From an uncultured bacterium (GTDB taxonomy: Bacteria > Patescibacteriota > Minisyncoccia > Phycocordibacterales > UBA9973), in the NCBI GenBank assembly GCA_903894565.1, contig CAITQP010000012.1, positions 1-57,700 on the forward strand: a stretch of DNA of 57,700 nucleotides, read 5' to 3'. The first letter of the stretch is position 1. The number at the start of each line of letters is the position of its first letter. Shown here one piece after another: positions 10,461-46,877 of the stretch. The notes below the pieces were generated by a model. The model made no database searches. It was not told the DNA's origin and saw only the letters and a list, made by a program, of their open reading frames with translations. Position numbers and translations under genes: made by a program.

Positions 10461-10463
10461 CTA

Positions 10464-13041: not shown

Positions 13042-13270
13042 ATTTATTTTGTGTCATTTAATTATATAAATGACGGATATACTTGGTGTGCCCACAACGG
13101 GGCGATGAGCTAGCCCGTTCCTACAAGAGGAATGGTGAGGGAGAAAAGTGTGGCCTTCACAAAGGAAAGCATGAATTCAATTTGTTTTCAGTGCGAAGAA
13201 CTTTTGTCCATTGAGAACGGGTTCTCAAGTTTGGCACGGGCTACATGCTCGAACTATTCTTTTTTGAAAG

Positions 13271-13309
13271 AAAACACCAGCCATCTTTCGAAGGCTGGTG
13301 TTTTCTTTG
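13271..13309. terminator. Terminator-like hairpin inside the 13132-13416 ORF
   Basis: aaaacaccagcc-atctttcgaa-ggctggtgttttcttt. Confidence 0.45.
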
Positions 13310-13542
13310 AAGAGTGTCTTCGGTTCAAAGCAAAAATCAGCCTTCGAGAGGAAGGTGAATCACAATTGCTTTTCCTTTGGACATGCGTCGAAACATACCT
13401 CGAGTATACCAACTGAGAGTCCCCCGTCAAGTAACTGTGTTGTACCTACAACAAAAAAAATATACAATTGATTGATCATGCGGTTTTCCTAACCAGCATG
13501 CCACTTGTATCTGCTCCGACCGTAACATTCGTTCCATAATTT

Positions 13543-14139
13543 ATGAATACATACAAAGATATTCTCGGCGTTATTACTATTGTCATTGCGATCATTAGTT
13601 ATTCGGACTACTTTTTTTCTATTTTCCGAGGAAGTACAATTCCACGCACAATATCTTGGCTCATCTGGGGAGTGCTTGGCACGATAGCCTTCGTCGTACA
13701 ATACAACGCAGGCGGTGGAGCAGGTACTTGGATTACTGGATTTACCGCAGTTATGTGTTTCTTGGTTGCCGGCACATCGTTTGTAAAATGCTCTGAGCAT
13801 TTTACGCTTTATGATTGGGTCCCACTGTCAGGCGCCGTTGTTACCCTTCTGTTCTGGTTTCTCACAAACAATGCACTCGTCGCGATTGTACTCATTATCA
13901 TTACGCACACACTCGGTTTTATACCGACAATGCACAATGCATACAAAAACCCCGACGAAGAAACCGCAATGACATTCATGTTGAATGGCCTAAAATTTTC
14001 TATCGCGATTATTGCGCTTGATTCATACACACTAACAACATGGCTCTATCCTCTAGTTATTGTTGTATTGAATGCAATTCTTGTGTTCGTTATTATTGCT
14101 CGAAGAATTTCATTACGAAAAACACGAGCAATTTCTTAA
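13543..14139 (+). CDS. Hypothetical polytopic membrane protein (about 6 TM)
   Basis: Hydrophobic throughout. No family recognised. Confidence 0.6.
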   Translation: MNTYKDILGVITIVIAIISYSDYFFSIFRGSTIPRTISWLIWGVLGTIAFVVQYNAGGGAGTWITGFTAVMCFLVAGTSFVKCSEHFTLYDWVPLSGAVVTLLFWFLTNNALVAIVLIIITHTLGFIPTMHNAYKNPDEETAMTFMLNGLKFSIAIIALDSYTLTTWLYPLVIVVLNAILVFVIIARRISLRKTRAIS

Positions 14140-20384: not shown

Positions 20385-20696
20385 ATGTACAGACCAGCAG
20401 AATCAAAAATAATCGACCATGACGGATTACAGATCACACACGATCTCTGCGATATTGCAGGATCAGAACTACTGAACGGGCACGGGTGCAGTTGCGGATA
20501 TATACATCCGTGGAGGAAGAACAACGAATTGATGACATTACTTTCGTATACAGAAGGTTACTGTCACAGTCATAAGTCATACTCAAGGATAACAAGTGTA
20601 GGAAACAAGCTCGTACTCGAATGTGACTTATACTGCAAAAAATGCCACTTACTTCATTCTTGTGATACATGTAAGCTACTGTCAGCTCTACATTAA
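20385..20696 (+). CDS. Cys/His-rich small protein (103 aa); hypothetical
   Basis: Strong SD sequence (aaaaggaggtattcaATG). Ten Cys and many His (GHGCSCGYIHPW, YCHSH, CDLYCKKCHLLHSCDTC). Confidence 0.5.
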   Translation: MYRPAESKIIDHDGLQITHDLCDIAGSELLNGHGCSCGYIHPWRKNNELMTLLSYTEGYCHSHKSYSRITSVGNKLVLECDLYCKKCHLLHSCDTCKLLSALH

Positions 20697-20712
20697 GCGC
20701 AGAAATGTGCGC

Positions 20713-20747
20713 AAAAAAAACGCGGCCTCGAATGAGCCGCGTTTTTT
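20713..20747. terminator. Bidirectional terminator (convergent with purB)
   Basis: A8-cgcggc-ctcgaatga-gccgcg-T6. Confidence 0.7.
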
Positions 20748-20757
20748 ATTTTCCGTT

Positions 20758-22137
20758 TTATTTCAAAGCAAGCTTTGCTGCAAGTCCGATGTAATTCTCG
20801 GGAGTGAATGCGAGTAATTCTTTCTTGACTGCCGGAGTGACGTCGAGTGCTTCGATGAATGTCTTGAATTCAGCCATTGTGACTGCGCGACCGCGAGTAA
20901 GCTCTTTGAGCTTCTCGTATGGCATGGCGACTTTTTCTCGACGCAGGACGGTCTGAATCGCTTCAGCAATGACTTCTGGATGATCGGCGAGTGCTCCACG
21001 AATTGCAGTTTCAGAAACAGCAATCTTTGAGAGACCTTTTTCGAGCGAGCCGTAGGCGAGCAAGCTGTAGCCAAATGCACTTCCGAAATTACGTTCTACT
21101 GTCGAATCCGAAAGATCACGTTGCAAACGAGAAATAGGAAGTTTTGTTGCAAAATACATGAGCATTGCATTTGCCATACCCAGATTGCCTTCGGAGTTTT
21201 CGAAATCAATTGGATTTACTTTGTGTGGCATCGTTGACGAACCAATCTCCCCTGCCTTTGGCTTTTGGATAATCCACGCATCTGAAATATAGCGCCACAT
21301 GTCCTGATTGAAATCAACGAGGATTGTGTTTGCGCGACGAATAATGTCACAGAGTTCAGCGTATGTATCATGTGATTCAATTTGAGTGGTGAGCAAATTT
21401 GCTTCGAGTTGTGCATTTTTTTTCTCCACATTCAAACTCGCAATGAATTTTTTTGAAAAACTCATCCAGTCAACCTTTGGGAAAGCCGACATGTGCGCGT
21501 TGTAGTTCCCTGTCGCACCATTCACTTTGGCGAGAATTTTAAAACTCTTGAGCATTTTGATTTGTCGCTCAAGTCGAAATGAATACACAGCAAACTCTTT
21601 ACCGAGCGTTGTCGGTGAAGCACTCTGACCATGCGTACGAGAAAGCATCGGAAGCTTGGCATATTCCTTTGCGTATCCTTTGAGCTTCGAATGAATACTT
21701 TCAAGCGCAGGAATCATTACATCGTTCAATCCATCACGGAGCATGAGCGCGTATGAGACATTGTTTGCATCTTCAGATGTAAGTCCGAAGTGAATCCATT
21801 CGATTTCATTCTTTATCGAAGTTTTCGCGAGCTGTTCTTTGAGAAAATACTCAACTGCCTTTACGTCGTGATTGGTCGTCGCTTCAAAAACTTTGACCGC
21901 TTCTGCATCACTTGATGAAAGTGTGCAGACAGTACGAATAGTTTCTTTTTCACTCGCCGTGAACGCACGAAGTCCAAGACCCTTTGTCTCAGATAAAGCA
22001 ATCAAATACTCACCTTCCATTTGCGCGCGATATCGCATGAGCGCTGCCTCACTGAAATACGGACGAAGTGCTGAAACTTTTTCAGCATAACGACCATCGA
22101 GTGGTGAGAGCGATTCGATCTGATTATTTGATTTCAT
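20758..22137 (-). CDS. purB: Adenylosuccinate lyase
   Basis: LSPLDGRYAEKV start, the fumarate-lyase signature region (GSSTMPHKVNP) and a length of 459 aa. Confidence 0.95.
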   Translation of the reverse strand: MKSNNQIESLSPLDGRYAEKVSALRPYFSEAALMRYRAQMEGEYLIALSETKGLGLRAFTASEKETIRTVCTLSSSDAEAVKVFEATTNHDVKAVEYFLKEQLAKTSIKNEIEWIHFGLTSEDANNVSYALMLRDGLNDVMIPALESIHSKLKGYAKEYAKLPMLSRTHGQSASPTTLGKEFAVYSFRLERQIKMLKSFKILAKVNGATGNYNAHMSAFPKVDWMSFSKKFIASLNVEKKNAQLEANLLTTQIESHDTYAELCDIIRRANTILVDFNQDMWRYISDAWIIQKPKAGEIGSSTMPHKVNPIDFENSEGNLGMANAMLMYFATKLPISRLQRDLSDSTVERNFGSAFGYSLLAYGSLEKGLSKIAVSETAIRGALADHPEVIAEAIQTVLRREKVAMPYEKLKELTRGRAVTMAEFKTFIEALDVTPAVKKELLAFTPENYIGLAAKLALK

Positions 22138-23095
22138 ATTTTTTGAGATTATTTTGAATGCGTTGTTCTATTGGCACAGTGAAATCCATTGTGAATTCTT
22201 TGCCCGTCATCGTTTCATAAATCTCAATATATCGGCGTGAAAGTTCTGCAATCAAGTCTTTTGGAGCTTCTGGGAGAGTTGGATCATTGTAAGGATCGCA
22301 ATTGTCTTTGAACCACAAACGAAGAAACTCCTTGTCGAAGTATTCTGGTTCAGCACCACTTGCCATGCGCTCCTCGTATGAGCCAAGCTTCCAATAACGT
22401 GATGAGTCTGGAGTATGGATCTCGTCAATGAGTGTGAGCGTGCCATTCTCATCAAGACCGAATTCATATTTCGTATCCACGAGGATCAATCCGTGCTCGG
22501 CAGAAATATCTTGTCCACGCTTGAAGAGCGCAAGTGCGGTATCGCGAAGCTGCGTCAGCAATTCCTTCGTTGCAAATCCCTCTGCGACCAGTTCATCGAC
22601 TGTAAGAGCTCGATCGTGCTCATCCTCCTTGGTCGTTGGATCAAAAATCGGTTCAGGAAGTTTTGCGTTCTTTTTTAAACCATCAGGCAAAACAAGTCCG
22701 CCGAAATTGCGTTCACCATTTGAGTAACGCGTCCAAATTGATGTATTGGTTGATCCAGTGAGGTACCCACGAACAACTGCTTCAACTTTGATCACCTGGC
22801 AACGCTTCACGACGACAACGTTCGCATCTGGCATATCAATGATATGGTTTGGCACGATATCTCGGGTCTGTTCAAACCAGAAATGACTTGTACCAGTAAG
22901 TACAGCGCCTTTGCACGGAATATGAGCAATGAGACGATCGAACGATGAGTGGCGATCGGTCGAGACCAAAATAACCTTGTCGCTTTGAGTATAAATATCA
23001 CGAACTTTGCCCTTCTTCTTCTCGCCCAGATTAATAAGATTGGTATCCTTCAGCACAAAATCGACGTTCTCTTTGAGTTTTTCGATTGGAATCAT
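22124..23095 (-). CDS. purC: SAICAR synthetase (long form)
   Basis: GKVRDIY...LVSTDRHSSFD...LILVDTKYEFG. Its 3' end overlaps the purB start by 14 nt. Confidence 0.95.
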   Translation of the reverse strand: MIPIEKLKENVDFVLKDTNLINLGEKKKGKVRDIYTQSDKVILVSTDRHSSFDRLIAHIPCKGAVLTGTSHFWFEQTRDIVPNHIIDMPDANVVVVKRCQVIKVEAVVRGYLTGSTNTSIWTRYSNGERNFGGLVLPDGLKKNAKLPEPIFDPTTKEDEHDRALTVDELVAEGFATKELLTQLRDTALALFKRGQDISAEHGLILVDTKYEFGLDENGTLTLIDEIHTPDSSRYWKLGSYEERMASGAEPEYFDKEFLRLWFKDNCDPYNDPTLPEAPKDLIAELSRRYIEIYETMTGKEFTMDFTVPIEQRIQNNLKKYEIK

Positions 23096-23181
23096 ATACG
23101 GCTATTTTACGGGAAAAATCAATTTTTGGAAAGCTATTGACTTATATTAAAAATTATTGTAATTTATATAAAAATGTACTC

Positions 23182-23472
23182 ATGGAAAAAAGAATTATAT
23201 TTATCGTTAGGAGTGAAATATATCCATCTTTTTTTATTTGGTTAAATAAAATAGTTAAAGGAGAACTGTATTTCAAAGATGGACTTGTACTGAGTGATAC
23301 CCTACAAGGTAAGAAGAATACTTTCTGCTCGTTGCGTTACATGGAGAATAATACCAGAATCAGCTCAGTATTTATTCTCCAGCTTTACGAAACGTGGGCG
23401 GATGTAATAAAAGATGGGGCAATTTCTGTTTTTAAGCAGTCTACGAAGACAACCAACGTAGAAAAAAATTAA
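23182..23472 (+). CDS. Hypothetical small protein (96 aa from the internal Met)
   Basis: AT-rich ORF with no family. A terminator overlaps its stop. Confidence 0.3.
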   Translation: MEKRIIFIVRSEIYPSFFIWLNKIVKGELYFKDGLVLSDTLQGKKNTFCSLRYMENNTRISSVFILQLYETWADVIKDGAISVFKQSTKTTNVEKN

Positions 23473-23510
23473 CTGCATAAGAAACCGCATAGGTCTTATG
23501 CAGTTTTCTT
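23471..23510. terminator. Hairpin between convergent genes
   Basis: aactgcataag-13 nt-cttatgcagtt-ttctt. Confidence 0.5.
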
Positions 23511-23534
23511 ATTTCTTATGCGAAAAATATTTTT

Positions 23535-24578
23535 TTAGATAAGCACGGTCTTCCCCACCCCAGCAACAATCTCCCCAATCTCGTACGGCTTGAATTCTTT
23601 TTCGTTCGCGAGCATTTCCATAACACGAGCTTTTTCTGTTTGTGGAACGATAAGCACCATACCGATACCCATGTTGAATGCGCGATACTGATCGCTCTCA
23701 GAAACATTTGCGAGTTTGGAAATGACCATGAAAATCGGAAGTATCGGCCATGTGCCTTTTTTGATTTGGACGTTCACATTTTTGGGAATGACACGCGGAA
23801 TATTTTCGATGAAGCCACCTCCCGTAAGGTGCGCAATTGCATTCACTTGTACGCCAGCATCAAGTACGCGAAGCACCGCAGGTGCGTAGTTGAGGTGCAC
23901 GCGAAGGAGCGATTCTCCGATTGGAGCATCGAGACCTTCGGGAATATCAGTCACCGCATATTTGCCGATATCAAAAAATGCTTTTCGTGCGAGTGAGTAT
24001 CCGTTTGTATGGAGACCGCTCGATGAAAGGCCAATCACAACGTCGCCAACGGCGACTTTCTCGCCAGTGATAATTTTGTCTTTTTCTACAACACCAGTGA
24101 TTGCTCCAGCGATGTCATGCTCTCCGGCGAGATATGTTCCTGGCATTTCAGCTGTCTCTCCACCAATGAGCGAGATTCCACCACCGAGACATGCTTGTGC
24201 CATACCACGCATAATTTCGGCCATGATATTCGTATCGAGTTTTTCATGGGCAACGTAATCAAGAAAAGTAATACCTTTCGCTCCCATGCATACGATATCG
24301 TTAGCACTATGATTTACGATATCAGCACCAACGCGCGAATAATCATTCGCCATTTTGGCAACCATGAGCTTGGTTCCAACTCCGTCGACACTCTGCACAA
24401 GAACAGGATTTTTGTAACTCTTTGCAATATCTGAAATATCGTAGAGCGCACCAAAACTTCCGATGCCTGCGAGGACGTTCGGAGTATGCGTTGCTTTCAC
24501 AATGTCTTTGATCTGACGGACAACTTCGTTGCCAGCCTCGATATTCACGCCTGATTGTGAGTATGCATCTTCGGCCAT
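23535..24578 (-). CDS. purM: AIR synthetase (phosphoribosylformylglycinamidine cyclo-ligase)
   Basis: YSQSGVNIEAGNE, DGVGTK and GGETAEMPG motifs. Confidence 0.95.
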   Translation of the reverse strand: MAEDAYSQSGVNIEAGNEVVRQIKDIVKATHTPNVLAGIGSFGALYDISDIAKSYKNPVLVQSVDGVGTKLMVAKMANDYSRVGADIVNHSANDIVCMGAKGITFLDYVAHEKLDTNIMAEIMRGMAQACLGGGISLIGGETAEMPGTYLAGEHDIAGAITGVVEKDKIITGEKVAVGDVVIGLSSSGLHTNGYSLARKAFFDIGKYAVTDIPEGLDAPIGESLLRVHLNYAPAVLRVLDAGVQVNAIAHLTGGGFIENIPRVIPKNVNVQIKKGTWPILPIFMVISKLANVSESDQYRAFNMGIGMVLIVPQTEKARVMEMLANEKEFKPYEIGEIVAGVGKTVLI

Positions 24579-24579
24579 A

Positions 24580-25104
24580 TTATTTCTGTCCGTCCAAGTA
24601 CCCCTTCACACCGAGACTGTGAAGTTTGTCATTCTTGGTAGTAATATCGCTCGCCATTTTCTTTTTGTAGTCTGCAAGCTTTTGTGTGAGTGCCGCATCG
24701 TTCGTTGCAATAATCTGCACCGCGAGAAGTCCTGCATTTTTCGCAGCGTTCACTCCGACACAAGCAACAGGAATACCAGGTGGCATCTGTACCATGGAGA
24801 GGAGCGAATCAAGACCGTCGAGCGACTTGCCTTTGATTGGTACGGCGATAACAGGGAGTGTCGTTACGGCAGCGACAACTCCGGCGAGGTGCGCAGCACC
24901 GCCAGCGGCTGCCATCATGACTTTTATTCCACGAGTGCTCGCAGATGATGCATATTCGTGCACGAGCGCGGGAGCGCGATGTGCCGAAGCAACACTAATC
25001 TCATAAGCAACGCCAAATTCCTCAAGCACTGCGGTGGCTTCCGCCATAACAGGAAGGTCTGAATCCGAGCCCATGACGATACCGACAAGTGGTTTTTGGT
25101 CCAT
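24580..25104 (-). CDS. purE: PurE, with a class I-like (N5-CAIR mutase) signature
   Basis: VGIVMGSDSDLPVM, ASAHRAP and AAGGAAHLAGVVAA motifs. Confidence 0.9.
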   Translation of the reverse strand: MDQKPLVGIVMGSDSDLPVMAEATAVLEEFGVAYEISVASAHRAPALVHEYASSASTRGIKVMMAAAGGAAHLAGVVAAVTTLPVIAVPIKGKSLDGLDSLLSMVQMPPGIPVACVGVNAAKNAGLLAVQIIATNDAALTQKLADYKKKMASDITTKNDKLHSLGVKGYLDGQK

Positions 25105-25154
25105 AAAATAAAGCTTATTTATTAATATGGCCTGATTTTAACAGATTTTCTTGC

Positions 25155-26411
25155 TTATATCAAACCGAGCTCTGTGCCAACTTCTTTGACGATATCAAGT
25201 GCTTTTTTGAGCTGTGTTTCAGTGTGTGCGGCTGAGACTTGGAAGCGAAGGCGCGCAGCGCCTTCTGGCACGACAGGAAACCAGAGTCCAACGACGTAGA
25301 CACCTTTTTCCAAGAGTCGTTTGCTCATTTCTTGAGTGATTTTTGCATCGCCGAGCATGAGTGGCACAATTGGGTGCTCACCTTCGAGTACTTTGAATCC
25401 TAAGTTGACGAGACCTGCGCGGAAAAATGCTGCATTCGATTGCGCTCGTTTCAAAAGTGACGGATCTTCTTTAAGCAAATCAAGCGCGCGGATTGAAGCC
25501 ATGACCACAGAAGGAGGGACTGAATTTGAAAACATATACGTGCGAGATTTCTGTCGCAAAAATTCAATGAGTTCTGCACGACCTGCGACGTATCCTCCAA
25601 CCGCACCTCCGAGCGCCTTGCCGAACGTACCCGTGAGCACGTCGACTTTGCCATGTACGCCACAATATTCAGGAGTACCTGCACCGGTCGCACCAAGTAC
25701 GCCAACTGCATGAGCATCGTCGACAAATAGCATCGCTCCGAATTCATCGGCGATTTTCACAAGTTCGGCAAGATCTGCCGCGTCCCCTTCCATTGAAAAA
25801 ACTCCATCGGTCACGATTATTTTATTGCGCAATCCGCCAACTGGTGGATTCGCGTTGTCGGCTTCAAGCATCGTACGAAGTGCTTGCAAATCTTTGTGCG
25901 GATAAATTCGTTTTTCAAGATGCTCGCGTGCGCAGAGTTTGAACGCATCGATGATCGAGGCGTGATTGAGTGCATCGGAATAAATCGCATCTTTCCAAAC
26001 TGCAGGTTTACCATCCACGCCGACTGCTCCGAATGGCTCATTTACCAGACTCGCAAAAAATCCGAGGTTCGACATGAAATTTGTCGAATACAAAATAGCA
26101 TCTTCTACGCCGAGAAATTGCGCGAGCTTTTTCTCAAGCGCGCGGTGAATCGTTTGTGTTCCAGAAATGAAACGCACTGACGAGAGACCGTAGCCATCGG
26201 TATCAAGCGCAGATTTTGCGGCTTTAACTATTTCCGGATGATTCGAGAGACCGAGATAATTGTTTGAAGCAAACATCAAAACAGACTTGCCATTCAAAGT
26301 CACCTCCGGACCCTGCAGTCCATCGATTTCACGCTCCACCTTAAATTTGCCTAAGGAAGTGAGGTTTTCGAGCTCTTTCTTAATATCAGCGGATAGTTTT
26401 GGGCTATACAT
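25155..26411 (-). CDS. kbl: Glycine C-acetyltransferase (2-amino-3-ketobutyrate CoA ligase), alpha-oxoamine synthase family
   Basis: PLP alpha-oxoamine synthase pattern (NNYLGL, DDAHAVG, GTFGKALG). The adjacent SDR-type threonine dehydrogenase favours Kbl over BioF. Confidence 0.8.
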   Translation of the reverse strand: MYSPKLSADIKKELENLTSLGKFKVEREIDGLQGPEVTLNGKSVLMFASNNYLGLSNHPEIVKAAKSALDTDGYGLSSVRFISGTQTIHRALEKKLAQFLGVEDAILYSTNFMSNLGFFASLVNEPFGAVGVDGKPAVWKDAIYSDALNHASIIDAFKLCAREHLEKRIYPHKDLQALRTMLEADNANPPVGGLRNKIIVTDGVFSMEGDAADLAELVKIADEFGAMLFVDDAHAVGVLGATGAGTPEYCGVHGKVDVLTGTFGKALGGAVGGYVAGRAELIEFLRQKSRTYMFSNSVPPSVVMASIRALDLLKEDPSLLKRAQSNAAFFRAGLVNLGFKVLEGEHPIVPLMLGDAKITQEMSKRLLEKGVYVVGLWFPVVPEGAARLRFQVSAAHTETQLKKALDIVKEVGTELGLI

Positions 26412-26435
26412 ATATGCACTCTAGCAAACTTGCGA

Positions 26436-27383
26436 TTATTTGCCCAATTTCGTTTTCAAATTCTCGAGCATCGTGTCGGTCATCTTTTCGAGATCGAATT
26501 CGTGTTTCCAATTCCATTCGTTGCGTGCAACACTGTCATCGATACTACCTGGCCAACTATCGGCAATCGCTTGGCGATGATCGGGAGCATAACTCATTTC
26601 AAAATTCGGAATGCGCTTCTTGATAACTTCAGCAATTTCCTTTGGAGTGAAGCTCATTGCGGAAAGATTGTATGCCATGTGAGTCTTGAGCATATCGGCT
26701 GGTGCTTGCATGAGTTCAATCGTCGCGCGAATTGCATCGTCCATGTACATCATTGGAAGTGGAGTGTTTTCACTCAAGAAACAAGTGTACTTTCCTTCTT
26801 TGAGAGCTTGAATGTAGATATCAACAGCATAGTCTGTCGTACCACCACCTGGCTCGGACTTCCAACTAATAAGTCCAGGGTAACGGACCGAACGCACATC
26901 AATACCATAGCGCTTTTGGTAATACTGACACAGCATTTCTCCCGCATATTTTGTAATTCCGTACATCGTTGTCGGCTCAATGACTGTCATTTGTGGCGTA
27001 CGAACTTTTGGCGTCGTTGTTCCAAAAACAGCGATCGAACTTGGCCAAAAGATTTTGATTTTTTCTTCAACCGCAAGATCGAGCACTTGTCGCAAACTCG
27101 TCATATTCAAATCCCAGCAGAGCTTTGGATTTTTTTCACCAGTTGCAGAGAGGAGTGCCGCGAGCAAATATATTTGTGTAACCCCCTCACGTTTGACAAG
27201 AGTACGCGTTCCTTCAGCATCAGTCGCGTCAAGCGATGTGTATGGACCAGTACCCACGAGAAGCGGATTCTCATCACGAATATCACTCGCCCACACATTG
27301 TCTCCACCGTGAATTTTGCGAAGAGCAAGCGTGAGCTCAACTCCAATCTGTCCACACGCTCCGATAACTAAAACTTTTTCCAT
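26436..27383 (-). CDS. tdh: L-threonine 3-dehydrogenase, SDR/epimerase-type
   Basis: VLVIGACGQIGVELTLALR...ASDIR, YGITKYAGE (YxxxK), and a length of 315 aa typical of short-chain TDH. Confidence 0.75.
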   Translation of the reverse strand: MEKVLVIGACGQIGVELTLALRKIHGGDNVWASDIRDENPLLVGTGPYTSLDATDAEGTRTLVKREGVTQIYLLAALLSATGEKNPKLCWDLNMTSLRQVLDLAVEEKIKIFWPSSIAVFGTTTPKVRTPQMTVIEPTTMYGITKYAGEMLCQYYQKRYGIDVRSVRYPGLISWKSEPGGGTTDYAVDIYIQALKEGKYTCFLSENTPLPMMYMDDAIRATIELMQAPADMLKTHMAYNLSAMSFTPKEIAEVIKKRIPNFEMSYAPDHRQAIADSWPGSIDDSVARNEWNWKHEFDLEKMTDTMLENLKTKLGK

Positions 27384-27405
27384 AAATGTATTTTGATTTT
27401 TGAGA

Positions 27406-28623
27406 TTAATAAAATGAGATTTTTTCTTTGCTTACTTTTTTTGCTTCTCGCTCGGAAGCCGTCATTTCAAACAATTTCTCAAGACGCGCCCTATCCATAT
27501 CATTCCACAATACTCCTCTCCTCACAGCCATTGCTTCCTGGCCTTTTTGCGCGAGGCGGAGTGGCAATTCGTACAACATACCTGGTCGCACATGACTCGT
27601 AAACGACGGGACATCTTCGGCGACAGTATCATACAAATGTGCACAGACGCCAATGACTCGTCCAGGGAAAATGGAAGTATTGATTGATGTTTTAGAAAAA
27701 TCTCCAAATACAGAACCGAGGAATTGAGCACCGCTATCGCGTCCTTGGATCGTAATCGTTGAATATGTATTCTTGAGATCAGCAGTGAACGTGCCTCCGC
27801 CGAGATTGACCCAGCGACCGATATAGCTATCAAACAAACAACCTGTATGCTGCTTGTTTGAATATCCATCCATAATACTGCCTGAAACTTCCCCGCCGAC
27901 TTTGCAGACAGGACCGATTGTCGTGCCACCTTCGATCACCGTGAATTCTTTGATGATCGAACTTTGTCCAACCATGAGTGGACCTTTGAGTACGGTAAAC
28001 GGTGCAACTGTCACATGGTCTCCAATCACGATTGGACCTTTGCTCGTGTCATACACACATTCCTTTGGAAGCTTCACTCCGACACCGAGATAGAGTCCTC
28101 GCTTTTTCGCGCGCATTTTTTCTGTAGCGATGCGGAGATTGTCGGCAAGTTCGTCACGATTGAAAAAAATAATATCTTCTAGATGTGTGAGTAACTTCCA
28201 GTTGAGATTGTGTCGCACACCACCCTTCGAGTGATGCTCGAGTGCTTGTGCAATCTCCGCAGATTTGTGTGTCAGTGTTTCAGTAAAAAATCCGGCCACT
28301 GCTCCATCAGCGTCGATGAAGCACACCTCCTTTGAATCGCGCACAATCTTCTCAACCAATTTCAAATCAGTGAGTGAAGGAGCGAGACGGGCGTTTAAAA
28401 AAAGAAATCCTCCTGTCGTCTTTTCAGAATCAGAAAATTGATGCACGTGTGAGACATCGTGAACGAGCGCACGTGAGTGCGCGAACACAAGAGCCTTCGG
28501 GAATACGATATTCACCGCTTCAAGCAACGTATACCCGCCCGTACGAATATCAAACGCCGGTCGAGTCAGCGTGACAGGATAGAGACCCGAAACTTCGCTA
28601 TCTTCATAGAGGATTATTTCCAT
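27406..28623 (-). CDS. GlmU-like putative nucleotidyl/acyl-transferase with a left-handed beta-helix
   Basis: The N-terminus MEIILYED...LYPVTLTRPAFDIRTGGYTLLE and the hexapeptide-rich C-half (IGDHVTVAPFTVLKGPLMVGQSSIIKEFTVIEGGTTIGPVCKVGGEV) match my recollection of the 'alternative bacterial GlmU' family. Confidence 0.65.
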   Translation of the reverse strand: MEIILYEDSEVSGLYPVTLTRPAFDIRTGGYTLLEAVNIVFPKALVFAHSRALVHDVSHVHQFSDSEKTTGGFLFLNARLAPSLTDLKLVEKIVRDSKEVCFIDADGAVAGFFTETLTHKSAEIAQALEHHSKGGVRHNLNWKLLTHLEDIIFFNRDELADNLRIATEKMRAKKRGLYLGVGVKLPKECVYDTSKGPIVIGDHVTVAPFTVLKGPLMVGQSSIIKEFTVIEGGTTIGPVCKVGGEVSGSIMDGYSNKQHTGCLFDSYIGRWVNLGGGTFTADLKNTYSTITIQGRDSGAQFLGSVFGDFSKTSINTSIFPGRVIGVCAHLYDTVAEDVPSFTSHVRPGMLYELPLRLAQKGQEAMAVRRGVLWNDMDRARLEKLFEMTASEREAKKVSKEKISFY

Positions 28624-28643
28624 AGAGTTTAAGTATACACCAA

Positions 28644-29942
28644 TTATTCTGGGATGACGGAGAGTGCCTTTCTGCCAATATCAGAACGATATTGCTTGCC
28701 CCAGTAGTGAATCTTGTCGACAGCTTGGTATGCCGTATCGAGTGCATCCTGCAAACTACTACCGATAGCTGATACCCCAAACACACGTCCACCATTCGTA
28801 ACGAGACCATTCTCACCATGTTTGGTACCCGCGTGAAATACAACAACGTTATCCATCTCATTTGCATCATCAACACCAGTGATAGCTTGCCCTTTTTCAT
28901 ATTGACCAGGATAGCCAGACGAAGCGAGGACGATATTACACGCTGACTCATGTTTCCAATGCATATCAACATCAGCAAGCGTTCCGAGTGCACACGCTTC
29001 CAGAACAGGGAGCAGATCACTCTCGAGTAATCGCATGTATACCTGTGTTTCTGGGTCACCAAAACGCGCGTTAAATTCAATCACTTTCGGACCATCGTTT
29101 GTGATGATGATCCCGGGAAACAAAAGTCCAGTGAACGGTATCCCATCTTCCGCCATTCCAGCGAGTGTCGGCGTAACTATTTCTTGATCAATTTGAGCAA
29201 GCTGACTTCTCGTAACAAACGGCACCGGCGAGACAGTTCCCATTCCCCCAGTATTTAATCCAAGATCATCATCGTGTGCACGTTTGTGATCTTGTGACGA
29301 AGGAAAAAGTTTACACGTCTTTCCATCAGACAGTGCATGAATGGAAATTTCATGACCGACAAGAAATTCTTCAATCACAACTTCGTTTCCTGCATCACCA
29401 AAAATCTTGTCTACCATGATTTCACGAAGTGTTTCGTGAGCATCTTGACGAGTTTCGGCAATAATGACGCCTTTGCCGAGTGCGAGACCACTCGCCTTGA
29501 TGACAATCGGAAATGATTCTTCGTCAAGGTATGCGACGGCTTTTTCGAAGTTCGTAAATGTTTCAAAACGCGCTGTTGGAATATCGTGGCGAGACATAAA
29601 ATCTTTAGCATATGCCTTAGACCATTCAAGCTGAGCAGCCGCCTTGGTCGGGCCAAAAATCAAAATATGTTCGGCGCGAAATGCATCAACAATCCCGAGA
29701 GACAAAGGTTCGTCCGGACCAACTACAACAAAATCAATTTTCTTTTCTTTACAAAATGTAATAAGTCCAGCTATATCAGTCGCCTGAATTGGCACGTTCT
29801 CACCAAATTCCTTGGTACCTGCGTTCCCTGGCGCAATATACAAAACCCCCAATCGAGGAGACTGGGCAAGCTTCCACGCAAGCGCGTGTTCACGGCCACC
29901 AGAACCGATAAGCAAAACTGCCAATTTATTCATACTCTCCAT
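28644..29942 (-). CDS. purD: Phosphoribosylamine-glycine ligase
   Basis: VLLIGSGGREHALAWKL, the ATP-grasp core and the C-terminus GGRVFGV. The start could instead be Met4. Confidence 0.95.
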   Translation of the reverse strand: MESMNKLAVLLIGSGGREHALAWKLAQSPRLGVLYIAPGNAGTKEFGENVPIQATDIAGLITFCKEKKIDFVVVGPDEPLSLGIVDAFRAEHILIFGPTKAAAQLEWSKAYAKDFMSRHDIPTARFETFTNFEKAVAYLDEESFPIVIKASGLALGKGVIIAETRQDAHETLREIMVDKIFGDAGNEVVIEEFLVGHEISIHALSDGKTCKLFPSSQDHKRAHDDDLGLNTGGMGTVSPVPFVTRSQLAQIDQEIVTPTLAGMAEDGIPFTGLLFPGIIITNDGPKVIEFNARFGDPETQVYMRLLESDLLPVLEACALGTLADVDMHWKHESACNIVLASSGYPGQYEKGQAITGVDDANEMDNVVVFHAGTKHGENGLVTNGGRVFGVSAIGSSLQDALDTAYQAVDKIHYWGKQYRSDIGRKALSVIPE

Positions 29943-29943
29943 A

Positions 29944-31629
29944 TTACACTACCTCTTTCTGATAGCAATCCTCACAGTAGAGAACCTCAGGAGTACCGGG
30001 CGCATAGTTTGTTTTAAATGGTTGACTACACAAGCCCGTATGTCCGTGGGTGTCTCGTTCGCACATACACGATCGATCAAAGAGCAGGTTGGGTCCGCGT
30101 GCCACAAACCGGCGTGTGTGACGACACTCGGGACACAAATGAGGAACCGGTATTGATACTTTTTTATAAAAACCTAATTCGTTCGGAATCAAGCGATAAT
30201 TTTTTGAACAATATTCACACGCCAAAATTTCTTGTATAAAACCATCAGGGACATCGTGAATTGATTCGGGTATTGATTCGAGCGAAACAGTTTCTTTGCC
30301 GAATGTTCCCCGCGGCGTGTCTTCCCATTTGAACCCTTTGGCGAGTGCCTCATCTTTTGTAAGCGGAAATTGTTCCTGAACACATGCTTCGTTGTATCCG
30401 AAATTTGAAAAATGTGCCGGAAAAAATGCACCATACTCGCCTCTCGTTTTCATTTCTTCGATAATATGTGATTTCAAGACGTGATAATCTGGCTCACTAT
30501 ATTCCTTGTTCAAAATACAATACTTCTTGTTGCGAAGCCCAAAACAACCAAAACAATCATCTGAACCAAACATCAGATACGAATACTGCAAAAAATTGGA
30601 TCCCCAACATTGCACGCAAACAATATTGTTTGATGCTTCTTGTCCAACATTCACACACTGATAGTTCGTTTCAGCATTTCTCCCTATCGTATCAGAATCT
30701 ACATTGTCTTTTGAGTTACGCCACGCATGGACACAGTAACGACAATCCTCAGCATCATAAGTGTGAAAACAGTGATGAATATTTTTTGCATTCATAATAT
30801 AGTTTCCAGTAGCCTCAACTGTTTGGGTCAATTCAGCGTATTTTCGCGGCTGTGTTTTTTTGAACGTCTCAAACGCTTTGCGTGCTCGTTCAACACCTGC
30901 GTGTGTATCAAGTTTCATTGCTGCAATTTTTTCCAGGTATTCTGTTTTTGAATACTGCTCATTGAATAGGCAGTATTGCTTCTGACGAAGATTCATGCAC
31001 CCAAAACAATCCATGCATCCCCTGCAGTCAAACAAGAAATAACTGTCCGTGCACGAGTGACAACCCTTTGAATACAGTAGTCCGTAACTATCGTAACAAT
31101 CATCACACTCATACGAGCGCTCGACTTTACTCGTAAAAGAGCAATCAACAAGGTCTTTTGATTGTTGGATCCAATAGCAGTTTGTACAATCTTCATTGTT
31201 CGATGATTCAACAATCATGTAGCAATTTTTGTTGTCAGCACTGATATTGATATATTCGGAATTCACACTACGCAAATGTAAAAGGCCTATCTTCGGCACG
31301 ATCATAAAAAGTGTTTCAAGCTGTTCCAAAAATGATTTGGAATCGTCATAGTCGAGTGCGTACTCACGTCCATCCCAATTGTCACTAAACCAGCAATCGT
31401 AGCACCACACAGTGTACGGTTTATTTAGCGAATACATCGAAATAACCTGTTTTTTACACTTGTCGCACTCACGCTTGTAAAATGAGCGCTCATTGCGGAA
31501 GCTCAAGCGCAATTGCATGCGACATGTCGGGCAAATAGTTGGCTCAAGCACATCAATCTTTTTATAAAAAGAAGCATCGTCAGGTTCAACGACAAACGAT
31601 CTTTCACATGTTGTGCATTGTTTATCCAT
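29944..31629 (-). CDS. Cys-rich protein of unknown function: zinc-ribbon-like module, duplicated Cys-repeat core, zinc-ribbon-like module
   Basis: The 562-aa product starts at MDKQCTTCERSF. That ATG (31629) overlaps the purN stop in ATGGATAA. The longer 622-aa ORF would run 190 nt into purN. Its stop lies 1 nt from the purD start. I count about 40 Cys. Confidence 0.8.
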   Translation of the reverse strand: MDKQCTTCERSFVVEPDDASFYKKIDVLEPTICPTCRMQLRLSFRNERSFYKRECDKCKKQVISMYSLNKPYTVWCYDCWFSDNWDGREYALDYDDSKSFLEQLETLFMIVPKIGLLHLRSVNSEYINISADNKNCYMIVESSNNEDCTNCYWIQQSKDLVDCSFTSKVERSYECDDCYDSYGLLYSKGCHSCTDSYFLFDCRGCMDCFGCMNLRQKQYCLFNEQYSKTEYLEKIAAMKLDTHAGVERARKAFETFKKTQPRKYAELTQTVEATGNYIMNAKNIHHCFHTYDAEDCRYCVHAWRNSKDNVDSDTIGRNAETNYQCVNVGQEASNNIVCVQCWGSNFLQYSYLMFGSDDCFGCFGLRNKKYCILNKEYSEPDYHVLKSHIIEEMKTRGEYGAFFPAHFSNFGYNEACVQEQFPLTKDEALAKGFKWEDTPRGTFGKETVSLESIPESIHDVPDGFIQEILACEYCSKNYRLIPNELGFYKKVSIPVPHLCPECRHTRRFVARGPNLLFDRSCMCERDTHGHTGLCSQPFKTNYAPGTPEVLYCEDCYQKEVV

Positions 31630-32344
31630 TTGGATATTTCTGTATCGCTTCACGTTTGCACTCTTCGAGAATACTTTCTTCTTCTGATGTAATAAGTGGA
31701 ATTTCGCGATGGATTTCGTGTACACGATTGTGCAAGAAATCAGAGAGCACTTCAATCTGCACTTCATGTTCGATCGGAAGCATACGTTGTGCCAAATCTT
31801 CAGGTGTGTCACCAGGGATGATCGGAACTTGTTTTGATTTAATCACCGCGCCTTTATCGAATTCAACTTCAACACGTTGTGCTGTTGCCTCACTCCAATA
31901 ATCACGGCTCGTTCGTTCGACAAACAAAAGTCGCGCAGCGTGCACTCGCAAGCCGAACATTCCCGCGCCACCAAAATCTTCACGCCCGACATCAAGTGGG
32001 CCTGGGTGCTGATTGGTCATCATGCCATTGTATCGTTCGATAACATTTGCCGGAGTCTTGACCATCCATCCATATTGACCAATGAATTCCACGCCACGCT
32101 TTTCGCATTCGCTCATAATTGCACTCCCGAACGTGCCCGGTGTTGGAAATTTTGATCGCTCAATCACAATAACATCGCTCGGTGTCATGCCATGAGCAAG
32201 TACTTTTTGAATACCGGGAGCATCGGGACGACTTGCGATCACAAGCACAGGTTCAATCCCTTCAAGCCTTCCACCAGCACGACACTCGTGAATGATGCGT
32301 GCTGCAGTCGTTCCCCCTCCAGAGATAAGTAAGGCAATCTTCAT
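31622..32344 (-). CDS. purN: Phosphoribosylglycinamide formyltransferase
   Basis: MKIALLISGGGTTA..., the NQHPGPL region, and 240 aa. Confidence 0.9.
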   Translation of the reverse strand: MKIALLISGGGTTAARIIHECRAGGRLEGIEPVLVIASRPDAPGIQKVLAHGMTPSDVIVIERSKFPTPGTFGSAIMSECEKRGVEFIGQYGWMVKTPANVIERYNGMMTNQHPGPLDVGREDFGGAGMFGLRVHAARLLFVERTSRDYWSEATAQRVEVEFDKGAVIKSKQVPIIPGDTPEDLAQRMLPIEHEVQIEVLSDFLHNRVHEIHREIPLITSEEESILEECKREAIQKYPNG

Positions 32345-32407
32345 ACAAATATAATACCATACCCGATCTCGCTATATATACGAGCATTTTTTTGTTACAC
32401 TCTCAAA

Positions 32408-32923
32408 ATGATTGAGTATGTAATCCTTGTCGACGAGAACGACCATCCGATTGGTCGTGAAGAAAAAATGCGTGCACACGAGCTCGGACTACTCCATCGC
32501 GCATTGTCTATTTTTGTATTTAATTCAAAAAACGAACTCCTCCTCCAGCGTCGGGCACTCAGCAAATATCATTCTGCTGGACTCTGGACCAATACCTGTT
32601 GCAGTCACCCACGACCAAGCGAAAGTGTACAGGACGCTGCACATCGCAAACTCATGCAGGAAATGGGGTTTGATTGCGACCTCACCGAACAATTTCATTT
32701 CACTTATCGCGCCGCGCTCGATGCTGGACTCACTGAACACGAGGTGGATCATGTGCTCTTTGGCACGTATGATCTCGACCCCGTTTTAAATCCTGAAGAA
32801 GCCGATGATTTCAAATGGGTTACACTCGAATGGCTGTCGACCGATATCACAAAAAATCCGCACGAATACACTGAGTGGTTCAAGATTTGTTTTGACAAAG
32901 TACGCGAGCTTGCCAAAAATTAA
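32408..32923 (+). CDS. idi: Isopentenyl-diphosphate delta-isomerase, type 1 (Nudix)
   Basis: LHRALSIFVFNSKNELLLQRRA..K....GLWTNTCCSHP ... EHEVDHVLFG. Confidence 0.9.
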   Translation: MIEYVILVDENDHPIGREEKMRAHELGLLHRALSIFVFNSKNELLLQRRALSKYHSAGLWTNTCCSHPRPSESVQDAAHRKLMQEMGFDCDLTEQFHFTYRAALDAGLTEHEVDHVLFGTYDLDPVLNPEEADDFKWVTLEWLSTDITKNPHEYTEWFKICFDKVRELAKN

Positions 32924-33028
32924 AAACAAAATACCTTTCAGAGCACCAGCGTAAAATCCTGAAGGATTTTCGCCTCACGCTCGCGCCGTCGCGCTCCGCG
33001 AGTGCTCTGAAAGGTATTTTGTTTTTAA
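32920..33028. repeat. 27-bp perfect inverted repeat with a 55-nt GC-rich spacer; it contains both convergent stop codons
   Basis: ttaaaaacaaaatacctttcagagcac (32920-32946) pairs with gtgctctgaaaggtattttgtttttaa (33002-33028). Confidence 0.85.
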
Positions 33029-33792
33029 TTTTTGGCTCGTTCGAGTAATTTCTCAATTTCGTCGTGCAGTACTTTGTTTGATGCAATCAAATCGGTGTTT
33101 CGATAATCATATGTCTCGGAACCAATATTTGTCACAATACCTCCTGCCTCTGATACAAGAAGAGAACCTGGTGCAAAATCGTAATCTTTGCCCCATGCGT
33201 CAAAACAAATTCTCGCATCAAGTTTGCCAAGCGCTATCATTGCAAATTCCCACCCGGCTGAAATGGTATGAAAATATCCAGCATTCTTTTCGATTGCAAT
33301 CATTCGTTCAGTGTTTCCTTCCTTCTGTAATTTCGTCTCGACACACAAATATGATTGTGCGAGCGTGCGAGTACCGACATGTATTCGCTCGTCGTTACAA
33401 TACGCTCCTTCACCACGCTCGGCCCAATACATCGTATCATTCACAAAATCGTACACGACAGAAAAAGTAACAACTCCGTGTTCAATGAGAGCGAGCATCG
33501 TTGTACAGAACGGCAAGCCACGGAGATAGTGTCCAGTACCATCAATCGGATCAACGAGCCAAAACCGTTCAGCGCTTCGATCTCCACCATTTTCTTCGCC
33601 AACAAAAGTTACATCTGGATACGCCTCACTTAAATGCTGTTTCAGAAAAAGCTCCACCGCTCCATCAATCTCCGTTACGATATCAGCTGGATGTTTGCTT
33701 TTCTCGTTCGTGATTTTCGCAACTCCAAAACTCGGAAGTGTAATATTCCGAGTCGCGCGAATGATTGGCAGAACAGTGTCTTTATATTTCAT
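33025..33792 (-). CDS. Inositol monophosphatase family protein
   Basis: FVGEE and WLVDPIDGTGHYLRG motifs. Its ATG overlaps the ppsA stop (TAATG). Confidence 0.8.
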   Translation of the reverse strand: MKYKDTVLPIIRATRNITLPSFGVAKITNEKSKHPADIVTEIDGAVELFLKQHLSEAYPDVTFVGEENGGDRSAERFWLVDPIDGTGHYLRGLPFCTTMLALIEHGVVTFSVVYDFVNDTMYWAERGEGAYCNDERIHVGTRTLAQSYLCVETKLQKEGNTERMIAIEKNAGYFHTISAGWEFAMIALGKLDARICFDAWGKDYDFAPGSLLVSEAGGIVTNIGSETYDYRNTDLIASNKVLHDEIEKLLERAKN

Positions 33793-38908: not shown

Positions 38909-40351
38909 TTAATCTTTCGGCACATCATAGGTAACATCAGCAGAACGTTCACAGAGATCGATTGGATATTCACCAGTGAAGCATGAGGTTGAGAGTACGT
39001 CGCGGGAGAGACCGGTCGCTCGGACAAGACCATCGAGTGAAAGGAAGTGGAGCGATGTTGCTCCGAGGAATTGGCGAATCTCTTCAATACTCTTGTGACT
39101 TGCAATGAGATTGGATTGCTTTGGTGTGTCGATACCGTAGTAGTCTGGGAATTTGACTGGTGGACTCGAAATCAAGAAATGTACTTCAGCTGCACCTGAG
39201 TCAAAGAATGCTTTGATGAGCTGGCGACTGGTCGTACCACGCACGATTGAGTCGTCCATGACGATAACCTTCTTGCCTTTGAGTACTGGAGCAAGCGGAG
39301 TGAGTTTAAGCTTCACGCCAAGGTCACGCACGTGCTGTTCTGGCTCGATGAAAGTGCGGTGAATGTAGCGATTCTTCACAAGCGCCATTTCAAGTGGAAT
39401 ACCTGAGGCTTGTGAATATCCGATAGCTACAGGCATCGCAGTCTCAGGCACCGGCACGACCATGTCGGCTTCAATCTTCACTTCTTTGGCGAGTTCAGTT
39501 CCGGAGTTGCGACGAACATTGTAGACGAGCTGTCCGGACAAAATAGAATCAGGACGAGCGAAATAGACGAATTCAAAAATATCAAGTTTTGGATTCGGTG
39601 CCATGACTTGCTCTGCGCGCAATCCCTCTTCGTCGATCACGAGCATTTCACCGGGTTCAACTTCTCGAAGAAATTCTGCGCCCATTGCTTGGAATGCACA
39701 TGACTCAGATGCAACCGCAAATCCTCCGTTGATTTTACCAACAGAGAGCGGACGCATGCCGAATGAATCGCGAACAGCAACGAGCATTGTTGGTGTCATA
39801 ACGACGATCGCGTACGCACCTGTAAATAGTGGAAGTACTGCTTTGACAGCTTCAGGAAGAGACTTCCCGTTCTTCACACCCTGCGCGATAGCTTCAGCCA
39901 TCAATTCAGAGTCGGAACGATCTTCAAGACGAACGCCAGTGTCTTTCAAGAATTCAATCAATGCGAGTACGCTTGGAAGATTGCCATTGTGCGCGAGTGA
40001 GACTGTGCCAGTCTCACCATCTTCATGGAATTGATCAACTTGAGGAAATTTTACTTCATCAATGACGACAGGTTGTGCGTGCGTGAGGAGAGAACTACCA
40101 CTCGTTGAGTAACGGTTGTGTCCAATCGCGACATGACCCTGCAAACGTTTGAGGTGCTCTTCGTTGTATGCAGCAGACACGAGTCCCATGCCACGATGTG
40201 AAAGTAATCGTGATCCATCACCGACAGTGATACCAGACGATTCTTGACCGCGGTGTTGCAAAGCAAAAAGCCCGAAGAAAGAAAGTCGGGCTACATCGAG
40301 CCCTTTTCCATAGATACCGAACACTGCGCATTTTTCGCCGAGATGTTCCAT
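38909..40351 (-). CDS. purF: Amidophosphoribosyltransferase
   Basis: MEHLGEK-CAVFGIYG (short propeptide before the Ntn Cys), the PRTase motif VIVMDDSIVRGTT and CFTGEYP. Confidence 0.95.
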   Translation of the reverse strand: MEHLGEKCAVFGIYGKGLDVARLSFFGLFALQHRGQESSGITVGDGSRLLSHRGMGLVSAAYNEEHLKRLQGHVAIGHNRYSTSGSSLLTHAQPVVIDEVKFPQVDQFHEDGETGTVSLAHNGNLPSVLALIEFLKDTGVRLEDRSDSELMAEAIAQGVKNGKSLPEAVKAVLPLFTGAYAIVVMTPTMLVAVRDSFGMRPLSVGKINGGFAVASESCAFQAMGAEFLREVEPGEMLVIDEEGLRAEQVMAPNPKLDIFEFVYFARPDSILSGQLVYNVRRNSGTELAKEVKIEADMVVPVPETAMPVAIGYSQASGIPLEMALVKNRYIHRTFIEPEQHVRDLGVKLKLTPLAPVLKGKKVIVMDDSIVRGTTSRQLIKAFFDSGAAEVHFLISSPPVKFPDYYGIDTPKQSNLIASHKSIEEIRQFLGATSLHFLSLDGLVRATGLSRDVLSTSCFTGEYPIDLCERSADVTYDVPKD

Positions 40352-40357
40352 AGATAA

Positions 40358-41128
40358 TTATTTTGTTACTTTCTTATTATAATACGAAATTGCGTTTTTG
40401 AAAAGAGCAAAGCCGTCGCCATACATGGGAAGCTTTTTACCCTTATTTTTAAACGTTTCTTTCTGTACCTGCCAGTCAGGACGCTGATGAAAAAACATTC
40501 CGCGCTCAGGATGAGGCATCATTCCGAGAATACGGCCATCGGCTGATATGACGCCCGCAATATCCTGCGCTGAACCATTCGGATTCATGGGAAGATGTTG
40601 GTATTCACACATCGCGCCTTCGGTATATTTAAATGCGATATTTACTTGTCCGTCTTCTCTCGGAACATACTTCCCTTCTCCGTGAGCAATAGGCACTGAA
40701 ATCGTTTTGAGATTTTTGGTCCATGGACTATTGCCCTCAATTTTGAGATCAACCCAACGCACCATGTATCGTGCACTTTCGTTGTATGTAAGTGCACCAG
40801 GAAGAATCCCCGCCGCTGTCAAAATTTGAAATCCGTTACAGATACCGATCACAAGCGTGTCGCGCTTCAAAAATTCTGTAAGTATCGGGCCAAGGTGATT
40901 GTTCAAACGATTGCCATACGCCTTACCACTTCCAGTGTCGTCACCGTACGAGAATCCCCCAGGCATCGCAAGAATCTGATATTTCAAAAGCATTTTAGGA
41001 TCAGCAATGACGTCGTTAATATGCACGATGTCTGCCTTGCCACCAGCTTCTTCGAATGCGAATTTTGTTTCAGCCTCACAGTTGAGTCCGTAGCCAGAAA
41101 ATACAATTACTTTAGGTTTGGTTTTCAT
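40358..41128 (-). CDS. purQ: FGAM synthase, glutaminase subunit
   Basis: VIVFSGYGLNCE, GICNGFQIL (nucleophile Cys) and MPHPER. Confidence 0.9.
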   Translation of the reverse strand: MKTKPKVIVFSGYGLNCEAETKFAFEEAGGKADIVHINDVIADPKMLLKYQILAMPGGFSYGDDTGSGKAYGNRLNNHLGPILTEFLKRDTLVIGICNGFQILTAAGILPGALTYNESARYMVRWVDLKIEGNSPWTKNLKTISVPIAHGEGKYVPREDGQVNIAFKYTEGAMCEYQHLPMNPNGSAQDIAGVISADGRILGMMPHPERGMFFHQRPDWQVQKETFKNKGKKLPMYGDGFALFKNAISYYNKKVTK

Positions 41129-41137
41129 AAATAAAAA

Positions 41138-44080: not shown

Positions 44081-44103
44081 AGAATAGAAAAAATGATTTA
44101 TTA

Positions 44104-45393: not shown

Positions 45394-45413
45394 ATAGATA
45401 GAATAGAGAAAAA

Positions 45414-46877
<1,464 letters not shown>

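Follow-up and report, generated by a model that had tools for sequence, protein, structure and literature searches.

A predicted zinc-finger-capped beta-solenoid protein family of Parcubacteria, with one member encoded between purN and purD

Parts of the protein described here recall several known systems. The zinc-finger families zf_Tbcl (PF13451) and zf_Tbcl_2 (PF23477), both labelled "probable treble clef", are themselves uncharacterised, so membership in them gives no function; LIM domains and left-handed beta-helices offer further points of comparison. The beetle antifreeze protein TmAFP is a thin beta-helix with inward-facing Cys, Ser or Ala at every third residue, and it is secreted, small and disulfide-stabilised. 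The TraG/VirD4/TrwB coupling proteins and HerA/FtsK resemble the product of a neighbouring gene and not the protein itself. We compared with these systems a gene at 29944..31629 on the minus strand of a 57,700-nucleotide stretch of DNA from an uncultured member of the Patescibacteriota (contig CAITQP010000012.1, positions 1 to 57,700, here called the window). This gene lies between purN and purD, and a first-pass annotation made from the letters alone had placed it in the purine operon. Our analysis points to a family of predicted beta-solenoid proteins capped by zinc fingers and spread throughout Parcubacteria, of which the gene encodes the single-copy "core" orthologue. The parts are of known kinds, zinc fingers and a solenoid, in an unannotated family, and the protein is not a new component of the purine pathway. 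That it is neither purine-specific nor metal-studded can be stated with considerable confidence.

The gene comprises 561 codons and a TAA stop. The first-pass annotation had the coordinates of the open reading frame (ORF) right and gave 562 amino acids (aa) for a protein of 561 aa plus TAA; its estimate of about 40 Cys agrees with our count of exactly 40 among 561 residues (7.1%). The junctions that it reported on both sides can be read directly from the sequence. The octamer ATGGATAA at 31622..31629 (minus strand, read from 31629 to 31622) holds both the start of the gene and the stop of purN, with the ATG placed 5 nt upstream of the purN TAA in a different frame (...CCA AAT GGA TAA in the purN frame and ATG GAT AAA in that of the gene). 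At the downstream junction, ...GTG TAA T ATG..., the stop and the purD ATG at 29942 are one base apart, so that the purD start codon (29940..29942, minus strand) lies 1 nt past the stop, and a GAGG Shine-Dalgarno sequence is found inside the 3' end of the gene. An in-frame GTG at 31812 was considered as an alternative start and dismissed, as it is inside purN; the ATG at 31629 is favoured because the alignments of homologues open at residues 1–5. Full-length alignments exist to more than 3,000 clusters of homologues; together with a dN/dS of 0.03 against the orthologue in locus L011 (85% identity), they indicate that the gene is real and coding, and the low ratio points to strong purifying selection. 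The product has an isoelectric point of 5.6, a net charge of -15 and a maximum hydropathy of 1.18, and no signal peptide and no transmembrane or hydrophobic segment was found in it. It is predicted to be a soluble, cytoplasmic protein because it is acidic and contains no hydrophobic segment. A promoter and terminator scan of 20500-33200 returned the same counts as shuffled sequence and was therefore uninformative.

Homologues are numerous. At 90% identity they form 3,094 clusters, all of them named "hypothetical protein", and at 50% identity there are 3,672 representative clusters, nearly all of 545–600 aa with end-to-end alignment. The hosts belong to Nomurabacteria, Paceibacterota, Jorgensenbacteria, Liptonbacteria and Minisyncoccia, all in the Parcubacteria/Paceibacteria branch of Patescibacteria, and the family is essentially confined to this branch. 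Some records carry other labels: locus L073, from a record titled "Burkholderiales bacterium", has two family copies, and "uncultured Candidatus Saccharibacteria" is the label of many other loci. Such names probably reflect artefacts of binning or naming and not real occurrences outside Parcubacteria. The orthogroup of the window protein is present in exactly one copy in each of 80 species-representative loci, with identity of at least 52–56% throughout, and the window protein is the most conserved, single-copy member of the family.

No curated family covers the window protein. NCBIfam and PDB sequence searches returned no match, and the Pfam search gave a sole, sub-threshold match to zf_Tbcl (PF13451; E 0.012, residues 4–39, 16 bits against a gathering cut-off of 24 bits). 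Thus no characterised family was matched in Pfam, NCBIfam or PDB, and the first-pass annotation was right to leave the protein unassigned. Moreover, PADLOC gave no match for five family members, and the sole PHROG match was to phrog_15341 (function unknown; E 4.8e-5, residues 131–230). Viral relatives were found neither by tblastn of 50,697 phage genomes nor in the IMG/VR viral contigs. We found no account of the family in the literature; in a preprint on protein families of the candidate phyla radiation, the single mention of "cysteine-rich" refers to CAP domains. One paralogue, P0266 (731 aa), has an N-terminal GNAT acetyltransferase domain at residues 1–180 (PF00583, E 3e-8) and is missing several zinc-ligand Cys from both of its terminal modules.

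The architecture is symmetric, as had been proposed from the letters alone: a double zinc-finger module, solenoid half A, solenoid half B and a second double zinc-finger module. Both of the internal repeats on which that proposal was built are borne out by hhalign. Residues 1–100 align with residues 465–561 at a probability of 99.4% (E 2e-21, 81 aligned columns), and in the core, residues 115–240 align with 265–395 at a probability of 98.6% (E 6.5e-16, 82 aligned columns).

The N-terminal module covers residues 1–95 (31345..31629, minus strand) and has a predicted local distance difference test score (pLDDT) of 93–97 in the AlphaFold2 model; its duplicate, the C-terminal module, covers residues 466–561 (29947..30234, minus strand). 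Each module holds two sets of four Cys. In the first, site 1 (C5/C8/C33/C36) is zf_Tbcl-like and is followed by the Arg-rich helix CRMQLRLSFRNER, and site 2 (C55/C58/C76/C79) is zf_Tbcl_2-like. In the second, site 3 (C471/C474/C499/C502) is zf_Tbcl-like and site 4 (C521/C534/C552/C555) is zf_Tbcl_2-like. The 16 terminal Cys of these four conserved sets are invariant or nearly so across 64 orthologues. We then correlated the presence and absence of Cys between columns in an alignment of 427 family members. The loss of the terminal sets was found to be all-or-none (r 0.85–1.0), most strictly at site 2 (r 0.99–1.0), where four Cys are kept in 305 paralogues, one in 72 and none in 48; site 3 co-varies at r 0.85–0.93. 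A cooperative metal site would be expected to lose its Cys together or not at all, and the terminal sets are best read as such sites. The window protein is thus very probably a zinc protein with four structural Cys4 zinc sites, two in each terminal module.

Profile matches elsewhere in the family agree with these finger types. PF13451 reaches 23.8 bits, just short of its 24-bit cut-off, on the C-terminal module of paralogue P0226, and precomputed matches exist for the orthologues P0020, P0026, P0054 and P0069. PF23477 scores 30.3 bits (cut-off 27) on the paralogue at L001:3344-5035, at residues 529–560, the equivalent of part of the C-terminal module; on the window protein it has no match at E <= 1. 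The helices that follow the zinc knuckles bear R37, R503, R507 and R519, which are at least 90% conserved among paralogues of 35–43% identity, R503 being invariant. Because these residues are conserved, the Arg-bearing helices may form a binding surface for phosphate-rich ligands.

Between the terminal modules lies a duplicated core. On the minus strand, half A occupies residues 121–226 (30952..31269), half B residues 261–376 (30502..30849), and the two are separated by a helical hairpin at residues 227–260 (30850..30951) with helices at 228–237 and 243–257 (pLDDT 95–98). Half B is followed by a capping helix and a highly conserved alpha/loop segment at residues 377–465 (30235..30501, pLDDT 93–98). 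Its motif is GE.G.FFP...S.FGYNE..A...FPLTK.EA...GF.WED, in which G400, P404, S408, Y412, N413, E414, P422, G432 and W435 are invariant or at least 90% conserved.

The modelled fold of this core depended on the alignment supplied. With 64 orthologues, AlphaFold2 resolved the core poorly (pLDDT 55–70), and a Foldseek search with that model gave nothing under E 1.3. With 137 diverse paralogues, the model reached a pLDDT of 90.5 and a predicted template modelling score (pTM) of 0.90. In this confident model, DSSP assigns beta-bridges to both halves at intervals first of 6 and then of 3 residues, and capping helices follow each half. Foldseek found nothing significant for it in BFVD or in PDB, where the best match had E 0.014 and TM-scores did not exceed 0.27, with root-mean-square deviations of 9–20 A. 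The core is therefore described here as a predicted beta-solenoid without a close solved relative.

The Cys of the core follow a strict phase. All 13 of those in half A stand at positions congruent to 1 mod 3, a coincidence with a chance of about (1/3)^12 for a single phase; in half B, one phase is common to 8 of the 9. The first-pass annotation had spoken of a "metal-studded" beta-solenoid. The solenoid is supported by the model; the metal is not, as the core Cys vary singly. It is worth considering what a metal-rich reading would imply, namely that about 24 core Cys bind many metals or Fe-S clusters, the protein serving in the manner of metallothionein or as a store, chaperone or redox protein. 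A total of 40 Cys with many CxxC motifs would suit it, and so would the high content of the family as a whole (median 38 Cys, range 27–49) and the columns of C202/205/208/211, which are 82–95% Cys. However, the core columns across paralogues are 20–80% Cys and otherwise hold Ser, Val, Leu, Ala or Gly. They also vary independently of each other (r <= 0.43), and even the members of the quartet drop out singly (r <= 0.21), unlike the all-or-none terminal sites. The strict three-residue phase, moreover, suits an inward-facing ladder of a solenoid. We therefore consider a metal-rich core unlikely. Because the core Cys are swapped singly with Ser, Val or Leu and show no co-variation, they are more probably buried packing residues than metal ligands.

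A second reading of the core would make the protein a left-handed-beta-helix enzyme, an acyltransferase or a relative of gamma-carbonic anhydrase, with the zinc fingers as appendages. The top Foldseek matches listed against PDB are exclusively left-handed beta-helices (LpxD, gamma-carbonic anhydrase, PglD, LpxA and GlmU), H289 and H301 do not vary within the orthologue group, and the fusion of one paralogue to a GNAT acetyltransferase could be taken in the same sense. None of these structural matches is significant, however, and Pfam Hexapep is not matched at E <= 1. The inward residue recurs every three positions and does not follow the hexapeptide pattern [LIV]-G-x2-[STAV]-x, and the two His are not conserved across paralogues. 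Such an enzyme is improbable in our judgement.

The position of the gene was the ground for its supposed role in purine synthesis. The first-pass annotation took it for an integral, functionally linked member of the operon: an accessory devoted to the early steps of purine synthesis and translationally coupled to PurN and PurD, which might be a zinc- or iron-binding partner, a chaperone, a regulator or a replacement for a missing step. We searched 17 window proteins by tblastn against 80 species-level loci, taken with flanks of up to 8 kb on either side. Pur genes lie near the orthologue in just two of the 80 loci, L011 (85% identity) and L028 (57%). Six further exact-protein look-ups gave a pur context solely for L005, a relative of 86% identity. 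In these three loci the order purN-gene-purD is retained, which together with the overlapping start and the 1-nt spacing of the stop is what speaks for an accessory. Homologues lacking purine association had been named beforehand as what would refute the idea, and they are the rule: 78 of the 80 loci have no pur gene within 8 kb.

In fact, the single-copy orthologue is conserved in quite unrelated contexts. Its neighbours differ from case to case: mreB-holB precedes and frr-rseP follows it, or the preceding and following genes are mreBC and tgt, or scpA-scpB and mraY-ftsW-murG. It is also flanked by argS and ileS, preceded by a pseudouridine synthase gene (rluA), or placed within arrays of its own paralogues. 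The pur-linked cases all belong to one small clade and represent one evolutionary event. Even there, the junction is variable. The start/stop overlap with purN is common to the window and L011 only, and is recent. In L005, purN ends on the same codons and is followed by a segment of about 575 bp with an antisense ORF of 146 aa, and only then by the gene. Coupling to purN is therefore not a conserved trait, because a relative of 86% identity has a 575-bp insert at the junction. L028 has about 20 nt between purN and the gene, and about 390 nt between the gene and purD. The insert in L005 lies at 7423-8001, its ORF has no Pfam matches, and it is an indel between near relatives. Furthermore, the string of pur genes around the window gene includes unrelated genes on the same strand. 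A dedicated purine accessory thus seems to us highly improbable. Of the zinc- or iron-binding partner that had been proposed, a zinc protein very probably remains and the purine link, seen in 2 of 80 loci, does not. The placement between purN and purD is a local, clade-specific accident of gene order and gives no clue to function.

Many loci hold more than one member of the family. We clustered all ORFs of the 80 loci and of part of the window (81 loci) and obtained 265 family copies, with up to nine in 17 kb and with at least two in 57 of the 80 fetched loci. Copies in the same locus are about 42% identical, and 98% of the copies have a closer relative (median 65% identity) in another species. 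Since the closer relatives are found in other species and not in the same locus, the arrays are ancient and stably maintained, and not fast-evolving. "Long" matches such as 8001-10410 were considered as possible inteins and dismissed, as the ORF maps show neighbouring paralogues that tblastn had joined.

The only recurrent non-housekeeping neighbour of these arrays is a gene for a P-loop ATPase. Its product matches TrwB_AAD_bind, TraG-D_C, DUF87/HerA and T4SS-DNA_transf and carries a zf_Tbcl_2 finger (E 3e-12); it also matches phrog_5156 (E 1e-61) and mad8 of PADLOC. The ATPase gene is present in 21 of 40 loci with at least three family copies, in 4 of 16 with two and in 2 of 24 with one, and 97% of these genes are on the strand of the nearest family copy, typically flanking the array. 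Examples are L026 9732-12824, L013 9679-11979 and L019 4672-6144, and 24 other loci have the gene. The ATPase comes in two lengths, a short one (about 485 aa) and a long one (600–1030 aa), and it is the long form that has the zf_Tbcl_2 finger and a Pro-rich or charged tail. In the comparison by hhalign, the ATPase finger aligned with family residues 50–82, the second zinc unit (E 3.3e-5, probability 72%). No N-terminal membrane anchor was seen in the ATPase sequences read, and no other gene of type IV secretion systems or of secretion in general is recurrent near the arrays. In L081 (12704-15688), L025, L045, L077 and L038, the ATPase gene or the array is followed by trmD, comEC and an amidohydrolase gene, comEC being represented there by a Competence domain and a separate metallo-beta-lactamase ORF.

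These arrays raise the question of whether the family is exported cargo of the TraG/VirD4-like ATPase, analogous to the substrate arrays beside secretion ATPases. The flanking of paralogue arrays by a coupling-protein-like ATPase on the same strand is the kind of arrangement expected. Against this, the window protein has neither signal peptide nor transmembrane segment, and its four Cys4 zinc sites are of a kind usual for proteins that stay inside the cell; the ATPase sequences read have no membrane anchor, no further secretion components recur nearby, and the paralogues are ancient and conserved and not diversifying. Export as cargo is accordingly a reading to which we attach little probability.

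Taken together, we propose that the window protein is a zinc-finger-capped solenoid scaffold or adaptor in a housekeeping process specific to Parcubacteria, and not a purine enzyme or a metal carrier; as a whole, this statement has in our view somewhat better than even chances of being correct. The solenoid would act as a rigid spacer, and the two Arg-rich zinc modules at its ends would be binding surfaces for nucleic acid or a partner protein. The partner might be the TraG/HerA-like ATPase, recognised through the finger type that the two share. This adaptor mechanism is a tentative part of the proposal, and we regard it as rather doubtful. More speculative still is the notion of an undescribed Parcubacteria-specific machine, made up of the core orthologue, the ancient paralogue arrays and a soluble, zinc-fingered TraG/VirD4/HerA-like ATPase, in which the solenoid proteins would be zinc-finger-tipped adaptors or rulers on nucleic acid. 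Since comEC comes after the ATPase in five loci, one possible role of such a machine is in DNA uptake or processing; another is in chromosome organisation. The cytoplasmic helix with its period-3 Cys/Ser ladder may also be a new fold variant.

Several observations weigh against this proposal. First, only the conserved Arg residues and the finger type suggest that nucleic acid or a partner is bound, and no biochemical or structural homologue points to a function, nothing significant having been found in PDB (by sequence or by fold), BFVD, NCBIfam or PADLOC. Second, the ATPase gene is absent from the 57.7-kb window and rare beside solitary copies, as the 2 of 24 loci show, which makes its link to the core orthologue indirect; part of the association could moreover be synteny inherited within clades. 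Third, the purN-gene-purD synteny reaches down to the 57%-identical L028, and a functional tie specific to that clade keeps a small probability.

The surroundings of the gene deserve a short description. Nearly all of de novo purine synthesis is encoded in the window (purH, B, C, M, E, D, N, F, Q, L and A, with guaB), the genes lying at 17341-18957(+), 20758-25104(-), 28644-29942(-), 31622-32344(-) and 38909-46874(-); the purL product has 980 aa. Other window proteins match Patescibacteria. Most members of Patescibacteria are not known to synthesise nucleotides, and a window bearing the purine pathway is unusual for a genome fragment of the Patescibacteria type. The unrelated genes in the co-directional string are a kbl-like class I/II aminotransferase gene (25155-26411) and an SDR "epimerase" gene (26436-27383), both on the minus strand in the interval from purE to purD, with synteny kept in L011 and L028, and beside them a gene for a 405-aa NTP_transf_4/hexapeptide protein (27406-28623). 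If the first two were Kbl and threonine dehydrogenase, they would convert threonine to glycine, the substrate of PurD. L021 (3400-9857) has no pur genes, and its orthologue (55% identity) is located some 2 kb downstream of a phosphoenolpyruvate (PEP) synthase gene, an arrangement also seen in the window. The PEP-synthase neighbourhood may thus predate the gain of pur genes beside the orthologue, or may have outlived their loss. Elsewhere in the window are a 1,581-aa ORF without Pfam match at 48926-53671(-), a DUF285 ("Mycoplasma") repeat protein at 10464-12734 and a BNR/sortilin protein with dockerin at 7637-10360. In locus L065, a 1,206-aa isoleucyl-tRNA synthetase-like ORF (10133-13750) contains a His_Phos_1 (histidine-phosphatase) match at 510–677, inside the match of the catalytic domain.

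The purine angle is not worth pursuing, and what remains is a large, wholly unannotated family conserved at the level of housekeeping genes. It is limited to a bacterial radiation that ranks among the least understood, and it combines a confident AlphaFold model that resembles no solved structure with a recurrent ATPase partner, which makes it a reasonable target for structural genomics within the candidate phyla radiation. Any function found would annotate thousands of "hypothetical" genes and might expose a lineage-specific process in organisms that cannot yet be grown alone. On the side of method, true metal ligands can be told from packing cysteines by whether the presence of Cys co-varies across paralogues.

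Finally, we return to the known systems. Like the left-handed beta-helices, the core is a predicted solenoid with short strands every 6 residues and a capping helix after each half. It differs from them in the absence of Hexapep and of significant structural matches, in an inward ladder of period 3 that is filled with Cys and Ser, and in the duplication of the solenoid within one chain, with no sign of a trimeric active site. TmAFP may be likened to the predicted core in its thin beta-helix and its period-3 inward ladder of Cys, Ser and Ala; it has no sequence or fold match to the window protein, which is predicted to be cytoplasmic and whose Cys are freely exchanged with Ser, Val or Leu in the family. 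LIM domains, with two adjacent Cys-rich zinc sites within about 60–90 residues, resemble the terminal modules. The last finger matches CRP LIM domains at E 0.044 in a PDB profile search with 137 paralogues and one paralogue matches Pfam LIM at E 0.01, both below significance, and the ligand spacing and the Arg-rich helices are unlike those of LIM. The likeness to TraG/VirD4/TrwB and to HerA/FtsK belongs to the neighbouring ATPase, which differs from the coupling proteins in having no membrane anchor in the sequences read and in carrying the zf_Tbcl_2 finger and a long tail. As for zf_Tbcl and zf_Tbcl_2, to which the terminal fingers are assigned by homology within the family, one unit of each type is present at either end of the protein, as CxxC...F.I...D..FY.K...P..CP.CR for the former and C..C-x17-C..C for the latter. 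The window protein falls below the cut-offs of both Pfam families, and what sets it apart from them is the fusion of the two fingers into one module, present in duplicate and capping a predicted solenoid.

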